Shown one piece after another: positions 7,356-8,069 of a DNA stretch of 64,000 nucleotides; position 1 is the first letter of the stretch; every line of letters begins with the position of its first letter. The notes beneath the pieces were generated by a model. It searched no databases. It was not told where the DNA came from and saw nothing but the letters and a program-made list of their open reading frames with translations. Both the position numbers and the translations under genes were made by a program. The stretch lies in IMG/VR virus record IMGVR_UViG_3300045988_081484, one strand, 5' to 3'. Origin of the DNA: a virus.

Positions 7356-8069
7356 GTGAAATGGTCGGAAATTCTTCCTCAAGAGGCACTGGATTTAAGT
7401 GTTCAACTTGAAAATCATGCTTTAGAAGAGCGCTCTAAAGGAAAGATTTTATTTCCAGAATAGGATAAAATCTTTAGAGCGCTTAATCTTACGCATCCAG
7501 AAGATGTAAAAGTTTGTATTGTAGGACAAGACCCGTATCATACCCCAGGTGCAGCAAACGGGTTAGCATTTTCTATTTCTGATGGGAGCCCCATTCAACC
7601 ATCTTTAAGAAATATTTTTAGCGAGCTTAATAGCGATTTAGGGATTCCAATTCCGCAGTCTGGAGATTTAACATCTTGGGCAGAAAGAGGAGTATTGCTT
7701 CTTAATGCAAGTTTAACTGTCTATGAACATCAAGCCAATAGCTGTGTTAATTGGGGATGGAGTAGGTTTACAACAGCGGTGCTGAAAGCCGCAACCCATT
7801 TGCCACAACCTATTGTTTTTATGTTATGGGGAGCTAATGCTCAGAATTTATTAAAAGATTTAAATTCTAGTCCTATGGTATGGGATGGACCTGGAGTTGC
7901 CAGAGAGAATTTGATTAAGAAGGCTTATATTTTATCTTCCCATCCAAGTCCTTTTAGTGTAAGTAAACCATGTAAAGGAACTCCTGCGTTTAAAGGTAGT
8001 AAACCGTTTTCAACAGCAAATAATTTACTGCTTTCTATGGGTGGAGAACCGATTGATTGGAGTTTATAA
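7356..8069 (+). CDS. ung: Uracil-DNA glycosylase (family 1) with one in-frame TAG
   Basis: GTG start 10 nt after RBS 'aaggag'. UDG motifs 'GQDPYH', 'GVLLLN' and 'HPSPFS' are present. The TAG at 7461-7463 aligns with Gln of the E. coli Ung 'YPPQKDVF' motif. The track only shows the 3' part (7695..8069) because of the TAG. Confidence 0.85.

Follow-up and report, generated by a model that had tools for sequence, protein, structure and literature searches.

The gene for a family-1 uracil-DNA glycosylase (UDG) in the IMG/VR virus record IMGVR_UViG_3300045988_081484 contains a single in-frame TAG, and the question that it raises is whether this triplet ends a broken gene or is read and, if it is read, as which amino acid and to what effect. 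The window, i.e., the whole stretch of 64,000 nucleotides that was analysed, is best understood as part of a large tailed phage with genetic code 15, in which TAG specifies glutamine (Gln), almost certainly by means of the phage's own tRNA(CUA). On the strength of the sequence comparisons given below, it is very likely that this reading is right, with an intact UDG gene that is maintained by selection and a codon 36 that is a Gln-TAG. The code itself is known biology: code 15 has been described in gut phages belonging to the crAss-like, Lak and other clades (bioRxiv 10.1101/2021.08.26.457843; PMC9523058; PMC7886860), and the assignment of TAG to Gln has been proven by liquid chromatography-tandem mass spectrometry (LC-MS/MS) in crAss-like phages (PMC9523058). 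Here it is found in a lineage that is absent from the deposited phage genomes.

The UDG gene is full-length across its TAG

The first-pass annotation had proposed that the UDG is intact only if the TAG at 7461 is read, and this was confirmed in all its elements: the frame comprises 237 codons, is interrupted by one stop only, and its translation carries GQDPYH at codon 57, GVLLLN at codon 112 and HPSP (as HPSPFS) at codon 196. The catalytic motifs GQDPYH and HPSPFS align with the same motifs of solved UDGs. The start is a GTG at 7356, and the relatives L009 and L010, which are 92% identical, have an ATG at the equivalent codon. In profile searches, for which the TAG was represented as X, the NCBIfam model NF003592 matched residues 2-236 with 217.2 bits (cut-off 162) and TIGR00628 scored 203 bits (cut-off 185.75), these ung equivalogs reaching residue 237; solved UDGs align with residues 3-237, among them the Coxiella structure 3tr7 (1.3e-48). 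The Pfam UDG model begins at residue 48 and is hence no proof by itself that the TAG lies inside the protein, a proof which the full-length models do provide. Additionally, the first in-frame ATG, GTG or TTG after the TAG is codon 114; as this lies beyond the catalytic GQDPYH, the standard code would yield no active UDG. These alignments indicate that the gene encodes a full-length family-1 UDG with homology on both sides of the TAG and is no pseudogene. It aligns over its full length with the E. coli Ung (b2580) at 39% identity, both proteins having the GQDPYH and HPSP motifs, and differs from the bacterial Ung proteins (PDB 3tr7, 1eug and others) in an insertion of about 15-20 residues before the HPSP loop and in the one codon that is TAG. 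The features discussed here and below are collected in Table 1.

Table 1. Coordinates and strand of the principal features in the window
Feature	Position	Strand	Remarks
AAGGAG ribosome-binding site	7340..7345	+	direct sequence reading; 10 nt 5' of the GTG start
Family-1 uracil-DNA glycosylase gene	7356..8069	+	237 codons, GTG start, TAA stop, one in-frame TAG
In-frame TAG, codon 36 of UDG, predicted to be read as Gln	7461..7463	+	clade codon tally; E. coli Gln41
Main tRNA array	10181..21281	+	includes tmRNA
tRNA-Gln(UUG) and tRNA-Gln(CUG)	19302..19453	+	A1:U72, G73; comparison tRNAs
AAA ATPase gene	20047..21168	+	one in-frame TAG at 20077; relatives at the TAG: TAG 2, CAG 1, CAA 1
Five tail-fibre-like genes (Mtd_N domains)	21559..26026	+	16 in-frame TAGs
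Amber-suppressor tRNA, anticodon CUA	27479..27554	+	presumed reader of TAG; U1xU72 mismatch, G73, encoded CCA; ARAGORN; Rfam tRNA 59.8 bits
NAGPA/SPOR cell-wall enzyme gene	48747..49601	+	2 in-frame TAGs within the Pfam domain
Lysin gene (phage lysozyme + amidase_2 + SLH)	49604..51013	+	9 in-frame TAGs
GIY-YIG endonuclease gene	58248..59159	+	8 in-frame TAGs (8/20 Gln positions, 40%), including YIG-TAG-S at codon 228
ThyX gene	59424..60062	+	one in-frame TAG (codon 51, VKFV-TAG-NIIKRGH), within the Thy1 domain

Persistence of the TAG and selection downstream of it

The simplest alternative is that the TAG is a true stop, either in a pseudogene that arose by CAG-to-TAG nonsense mutation or as the result of a sequencing or assembly error. 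A single transition suffices to convert CAG to TAG, and a TAG opposite the Gln of relatives is just what such a mutation would leave behind; further, gene callers using the standard code do truncate the gene, the JGI calls of related UDGs (P0061, P0064) being N-terminally truncated and beginning only after the TAG of those relatives. Against this stands the persistence of the triplet. A TAG at codon 36 in an otherwise open frame is shared by six IMG/VR contigs, which are independent and come from two or more datasets; this excludes an assembly error. The UDGs of these contigs are 92-99% identical, the frame having thus remained intact through up to 8% amino-acid divergence. Between the window and L009/L010 the synonymous divergence (dS) of the gene is about 0.9-1.0, with synonymous sites almost saturated, and the ratio of nonsynonymous to synonymous divergence (dN/dS) is 0.07 over codons 1-35 and 0.035 over codons 37-237. 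The latter value points to strong purifying selection downstream of the TAG and hence to a UDG that is translated through it. Moreover, 22 of the 29 unique UDG orthologues (L001, L103-L137) have one or two in-frame TAGs and remain full length, the other seven having none, and the window as a whole holds 38 in-frame TAGs in 11 genes, many of them spanned by conserved domains, together with a cognate tRNA(CUA). A true stop is accordingly an extremely improbable account of codon 36.

Codon identity at position 36 of the UDG

Among the 120 closest database homologues the column of the TAG is Q in 109 of 116, a tally that was discarded as unsafe, these homologues being code-15 translations. In the DNA behind two of them, P0001 and P0013, the codon given as 'Q10' proved to be a TAG called under code 15, and the tally was therefore redone on DNA. 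It drew on 80 IMG/VR loci found with a UDG alignment, among which 29 unique orthologues were at least 48% identical. Codon 36 is CAG in 15 of these, CAA in nine and TAG in five, the five TAGs belonging to near relatives of the window and to one independent lineage (L131, 53% identical). All 24 orthologues with a sense codon at this position (49-81% identity) thus have CAA or CAG. Only three columns in the UDG clade are Gln at 90% or more, namely codon 36, the Gln of GQDPYH and residue 151. The reverse exchange is also seen, codon 10 being TAG in relatives where the window has CAA.

Beyond the clade, BLASTP against the E. coli K-12 Ung places the TAG opposite Gln41 of IYPPQKDVF, in agreement with what had been claimed from the sequence for the E. 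coli residue. The aligned residue is likewise Gln in the Coxiella Ung, and Ser, Val, Arg or Ala in other solved UDGs. Below about 46% identity the column holds K, S, E, R, I or V, and in 146 representatives of 50%-identity clusters it is Q in 25 (17%), E in 18, P in 18, K in 17, A in 16 and R in 12. The description of the site as a conserved Gln consequently stands for the phage clade and goes too far for the family at large, in which these alignments show a variable column with Gln as simply the commonest residue.

The amino acid assigned to TAG across the window

Because a TAG opposite Gln would also be expected from a CAG-to-TAG nonsense mutation, all TAG-bearing genes were tested. The gene set consisted of the real genes of the window with TAA and TGA as the only stops, and in it the UDG, ThyX and AAA ATPase genes have one TAG each, the tail-fibre-like genes 16, the NAGPA/SPOR enzyme two, the lysin nine and the GIY-YIG endonuclease eight. 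TAGs near the 5' ends of open reading frames (ORFs), at 2425, 34754, 39419 and 46707, and the first TAG of ORF 19990 were left out as lying upstream of the likely true starts; a tRNA-Tyr overlaps the longer ORF 19990, which places the true start of the AAA ATPase at the ATG at 20047. TAG-rich ORFs on the minus strand (36017-37126 and others), taken from a greedy longest-ORF map, were rejected as spurious, standard plus-strand genes being present there. ORF totals for the whole window under each alternative stop set gave no discrimination between codes, and since the removal of any stop lengthens random ORFs they were dropped in favour of codon tallies anchored in homology. Conserved domains extend across the TAGs of the lysin, the NAGPA enzyme and ThyX (Pfam and NCBIfam models) and of the UDG (full-length NCBIfam models), and the tail-fibre-like gene at 23491-24663 has a conserved C-terminal motif after its last TAG.

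For the test itself, the 11 genes, with TAG as X, were compared by tblastn with 101 related loci, and the subject codons were read in unique alignments of less than 90% identity. Opposite the TAGs of the window, 313 of 607 sense codons are CAA or CAG (52%) against a Gln background of 2.8%, a level matching that at which the window's own CAA and CAG codons are conserved as Gln in the same alignments (50%). Trp and Tyr account for one codon each. In a likelihood comparison whose substitution profiles came from the same alignments, Gln scored -1218 and the next amino acid, Lys, -1714, a difference of about 500 log units. When sense codons were masked as a control, the true amino acid was assigned in eight of the eight cases in which synonymous codons remained, the masked TGG being uninformative for want of a synonymous codon to learn from; TAG scores in this test like a genuine Gln codon. 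CAA is more frequent than CAG opposite the TAGs, as it is genome-wide, which indicates that TAG is equivalent to the amino acid Gln and not only to the mutational neighbour CAG.

Individual columns point the same way, in that every TAG column that is both strongly conserved and widely sampled is a Gln column: codon 36 of the UDG, columns 225 and 274 of the lysin, which are CAA, CAG or TAG without exception (100%) in 80 loci of 51-98% identity, and column 40 of the lysin, with Gln in 56 of 59 sense codons. The TAGs at lysin columns 40 and 89 are common to the window lineage and to a 64%-identical lineage (L020-L056), and TAG has therefore persisted at particular codons although synonymous change is saturated. 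The evidence that decides the matter is hence the selection downstream of the TAG together with TAGs at deeply invariant Gln columns, and not the presence of Gln in near relatives alone. The earlier conclusion that the proteins support TAG as Gln independently of the tRNA is upheld by the 313 of 607 Gln codons and by the choice of Gln in the likelihood comparison.

With respect to the lysin, it may also be recorded that the 240-kb contig L092 (IMGVR_UViG_3300028805_000039) carries ten in-frame TAGs in a 57%-identical homologue, some of them at otherwise conserved Asn (38) or Phe (107) columns; misalignment, decay or a different decoding could each account for these odd positions.

The YIG-TAG-S site of the GIY-YIG endonuclease, which had been put forward as fitting Gln, lends slight support: codon 228 is TAG in 21 relatives, CAA in five and CAG in one, which fits, and AAA in three, with Ser in I-TevI, which does not. 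This endonuclease is free-standing, has a coiled-coil N-terminal half and lies directly upstream of ThyX.

The suppressor tRNA

ARAGORN labels the CUA tRNA as specific for pyrrolysine (Pyl), a label that derives from the anticodon only. A tRNA-Pyl is marked by a small D loop without G18G19, a 6-bp anticodon stem, a 3-nt variable loop and accompanying pyl genes. The suppressor instead has a canonical cloverleaf, with a AATGGTTTA D loop containing GG, a GTTCGAAT T loop, a GGTTCGAATCC T arm and a 5-bp anticodon stem. It scores 59.8 bits on the general tRNA model, and no Pyl-family match was found among the window proteins scanned; the cloverleaf and the score rule out a tRNA-Pyl. Compared with other tRNAs of the phage, the suppressor is 71% identical to tRNA-Trp and 68% identical to tRNA-Gln(UUG). 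In acceptor pairs 2-6 and G73 it matches tRNA-Gln(UUG), its anticodon and T arms resemble those of tRNA-Trp, and a single base separates its anticodon arm from that of the phage Trp tRNA and likewise from that of the Tyr tRNA. Similarity thus does not type the suppressor, and it is the protein-level evidence that fixes the meaning of TAG.

The acceptor end is of the Gln type, with U1xU72 and G73, and is combined with U35 of the CUA anticodon, elements that belong to the identity set of the E. coli glutaminyl-tRNA synthetase (GlnRS). In E. coli an open 1:72 position with G73 and U35 favours GlnRS, which is taken here as a lead only. The classical E. coli amber suppressors supE and su+7 insert Gln, the latter being a tRNA-Trp with a CUA anticodon that is charged with Gln, and a Trp-like body is for this reason no argument against Gln. 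The phage tRNA shares with supE and su+7 the CUA anticodon, G73 and a weak or unpaired 1:72 position, and differs from them in being a dedicated phage gene conserved across lineages and not a mutant host tRNA.

Relatives retain the suppressor, which occurs in six distinct sequences (the window, L002-L004 and L094-L100), all with G73 and an encoded CCA, and position 1:72 is unpaired in all six (UxU, CxU or UxC). Outside the suppressors a 1:72 mismatch is seen only in tRNA-His (three of five versions), in tRNA-Met(CAU) (two of six versions, including the window's initiator-like tRNA-Met with CxA) and in one tRNA-Val(CAC) call without an encoded CCA. No mention of a conserved 1:72 mismatch in a suppressor was found in two papers on phage recoding. 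The version in L002-L004 (144-kb contigs with a 73%-identical UDG) has about 15 extra nucleotides, a class II-like variable arm and G73, its D and anticodon arms resembling those of the window suppressor. A search of the surroundings of the suppressor with Rfam at the gathering threshold revealed no ribozyme of the hepatitis delta virus-like (theta) type.

Several of these properties could be marshalled for a translation of TAG as Trp, Tyr, Lys, Pyl or Ser, viz. the slightly closer overall similarity to tRNA-Trp, the anticodon arm so near to both Trp and Tyr tRNAs, the Pyl label and the Ser-like combination of a long variable arm with G73 in L002-L004, to which may be added that certain TAG columns are mainly Lys, Ala, Ser or Gly. 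However, Trp and Tyr are almost missing from the 607 sense codons, Gln is preferred over Lys by the wide likelihood margin noted above, the strongly conserved and widely sampled TAG columns are all Gln, and the cloverleaf with its GG-containing D loop and 5-bp anticodon stem is unlike that of tRNA-Pyl. A residue other than Gln is therefore regarded as very improbable.

The suppressor is one of 33 tRNAs in the window, of which ARAGORN found 31 and Rfam two more; apart from the main array, they comprise the suppressor and three others at 26738-28613. Within the array lies a phage tmRNA (16753-17068; Rfam 113 bits) with the tag peptide DNDYFENYLAA. The two tRNAs missed by ARAGORN are a 117-nt form at 19623-19739, whose anticodon region is enlarged by an insertion of about 45 nt, and a class II tRNA-Tyr(GUA) at 19930-20014, which is the one that overlaps the 5' end of ORF 19990. 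The phage tRNA-His (14016-14092) has an encoded G-1 and a U1xC72 mismatch. The window further encodes a set of candidate tRNA repair or editing enzymes: a Thg1-like 3'-5' polymerase (43454-44320; Pfam 1e-28), an RNA ligase (37095-37856), a metallophosphoesterase (33864-34628) and an RNase T-like protein (35409-36233). It is conceivable that such enzymes edit the 5' ends of the mismatched phage tRNAs, the suppressor included.

Observations that weigh against the Gln assignment

A number of observations weigh against the reading of TAG as Gln or narrow its base. First, as the UDG column tolerates many residues across the family, this site taken alone would be compatible with another amino acid as well. 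Second, the TAG of ThyX, for which an alignment supporting Gln had been claimed, aligns with Ala, Arg or Glu: of the solved ThyX structures, the two best groups have Arg in the codon 51 column and TM0449 has Glu, and among the 120 closest homologues the column is Ala in 86 and Q in 21. These Qs are concentrated in the nearest relatives, 16 of the 21 occurring at 80% identity or more, and when the codon was read on DNA it was TAG in four of four loci from relatives of 91-98% identity; the Qs in the database are hence most likely in-silico code-15 translations of TAG. The claim of support from ThyX could not be sustained, and the site was discarded as evidence for TAG as Gln. Third, judged by its sequence the suppressor is ambiguous in identity, Trp and Gln being too close to one another. 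Finally, neither a release-factor gene nor an aminoacyl-tRNA synthetase gene turned up among about 30 window proteins scanned, which sets these proteins apart from code-15 gut phages with a synthetase or release-factor module for the code change, and the analysis covers 64 kb of a genome of about 115-146 kb.

Where TAG is used, and whether it gates expression

The ORFs on the plus strand of the window end in TAA (37) or TGA (15), 52 stops in total, and in the genes with TAGs homology extends beyond the final one, such that no gene in the 64 kb requires TAG as a terminator. Its use is strongly uneven. In the tail-fibre and lysis genes 27 of 83 Gln positions (33%) are TAG, as against three of 318 (0.9%) in the other genes (Fisher p = 2e-17), the latter class being defined by exclusion of the tail-fibre, lysis and GIY-YIG genes and the UDG holding one of its three TAGs. 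Both topoisomerase II subunits, DNA ligase, nicotinamide phosphoribosyltransferase (NAMPT), NAD synthase, PhoH and Sak4 are free of TAG. In code-15 phages early genes have been found to be readable in the standard code, and recoded stops to gate homing endonucleases and the late genes for structure and lysis until a suppressor acts (bioRxiv 10.1101/2021.08.26.457843); the enrichment of TAG in the structural and lysis genes of the window fits this published model. The window resembles the code-15 gut phages in the alignment of its TAGs with Gln, in encoding a tRNA(CUA) and in the concentration of TAG in structural and lysis genes and a homing-type endonuclease; its lysozyme/amidase is rich in TAG, as in crAss-like phages, and its DNA-metabolism genes are mostly in the standard code and variably recoded, as in code-15 gut phages in general. 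The density of TAG in the GIY-YIG gene recalls the heavily recoded homing endonuclease of the TGA-recoded Agate phages (bioRxiv 10.1101/2021.08.26.457843).

In mechanistic terms, the tRNA(CUA) would be charged by a host enzyme, with GlnRS or GluRS plus GatCAB as the candidate routes, and, once charged, would read the in-frame TAGs as Gln. Suppression would presumably be switched on in the course of infection, and the TAGs may thereby delay translation of the tail-fibre and lysis genes and of the GIY-YIG endonuclease and, more mildly, of the UDG and ThyX. If codon 36 is a Gln-TAG, full-length active UDG would be made only when amber suppression works in the infected cell.

The place of the UDG in this scheme is less clear-cut, since it is located between TAG-free genes (6514-7290 and 8091-9395) and belongs to a class of genes that avoids TAG. 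The TAGs of the UDG orthologues occupy six columns (9, 16, 23, 36, 38 and 66), all in the N-terminal quarter of the protein, and the 32 columns that are only ever Gln reach residue 227 (Mann-Whitney one-sided p = 0.0008 for the N-terminal bias, a test with few independent events and with a comparison picked after the data had been seen). The other TAG-bearing genes of the window show no N-terminal bias (p = 0.90). The early TAG in the UDG could thus be a selected gate. The alternative is that TAG means Gln and that the TAG in the UDG has no regulatory meaning, having arisen by neutral drift between CAG and TAG as synonymous codons, with TAG as a third Gln codon. About 10% of the Gln positions in the window are TAG, and one TAG would be expected among the nine Gln positions of the UDG; further, the TAG shifts in position between lineages and is missing from seven of the 29 orthologues. 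What speaks against drift is that 22 of the 29 orthologues have a TAG in a gene class that otherwise strongly avoids it, and that these TAGs are confined to the first 66 codons, beyond which Gln-only columns continue. Given the few independent events and the post hoc comparison, neutral drift stays a serious rival to a gate in the UDG, and it is regarded as a substantial possibility, though one falling short of probable.

A more elaborate proposal joins the selected gate in the UDG to a control of the code switch at the suppressor itself, in which the unpaired 1:72 position would be edited by the Thg1-like polymerase into a 5' end that can be charged. This combination is considered unlikely. 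If it were true, translation of the UDG and the lysis genes would have to wait for the action of the Thg1-like enzyme. Two small leads emerge from the window, namely a DNA-repair gene in which N-terminal TAGs recur, and the conserved mismatch at the acceptor end of the suppressor tRNA.

Consequences for annotation

Annotation of this lineage in the standard code would truncate or split the UDG, ThyX, the lysin, the tail fibres and the endonuclease. The converse hazard lies in protein collections. Code-15 translations are present in public ones (P0001, P0013, P0270-P0286), and the codon behind a 'Q' in a homologue taken from them may be TAG, which is how the ThyX column came to look richer in Gln than it is. 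Alignment tests of codon reassignment therefore need codons.

Relatives, lineage and host

Searches with blastn and tblastn against 50,697 deposited phage records revealed no close relative and no blastn match, the best matches being at most 45% identical for the UDG and at most 36% for the topoisomerase. Among the assemblies of IMG/VR and ENA the lineage is common; its contigs there are 114-148 kb long, and their translation in code 15 is already automated. It is distinct from the crAss-like and Lak code-15 phages, from which it also differs in its Gram-positive-type SLH and SPOR lysis domains. A comparison suggests itself with phAss-1 of the proposed Phassvirus, a group of gut-virome genomes of about 135 kb with about 36 tRNAs, tRNA-Sup-CTA genes and a predicted Clostridia host, in which TAG occurs in 41 ORFs, including several DNA-processing enzymes, and in which orthologues vary between species in their TAGs (PMC10607447). 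phAss-1 has three suppressor tRNA genes to the one in the window, and its description makes no mention of a UDG (PMC10607447). No relationship to phAss-1 was detectable, the phage collection having yielded nothing close.

A 65%-identical UDG without TAG is found on a phage-like contig that was binned with a Lachnospiraceae metagenome-assembled genome. This relative and the SLH and SPOR domains of the lysis proteins suggest that the host of the window phage belongs to the Firmicutes. The code-15 phages would thus gain a lineage of about 115-146 kb that probably infects Firmicutes and that shows the published enrichment of TAG in lysis and structural genes.

Some other genes of the window, all free of TAG, may be noted in passing. 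An 813-aa ORF (30789-33230) contains major-vault-protein shoulder and vault-repeat domains (6e-18) and has no PHROG match, and an SPFH/Band-7 protein is encoded separately from it at 45629-46525. NAMPT and NAD synthase together form an NAD salvage module at 40350-42661.

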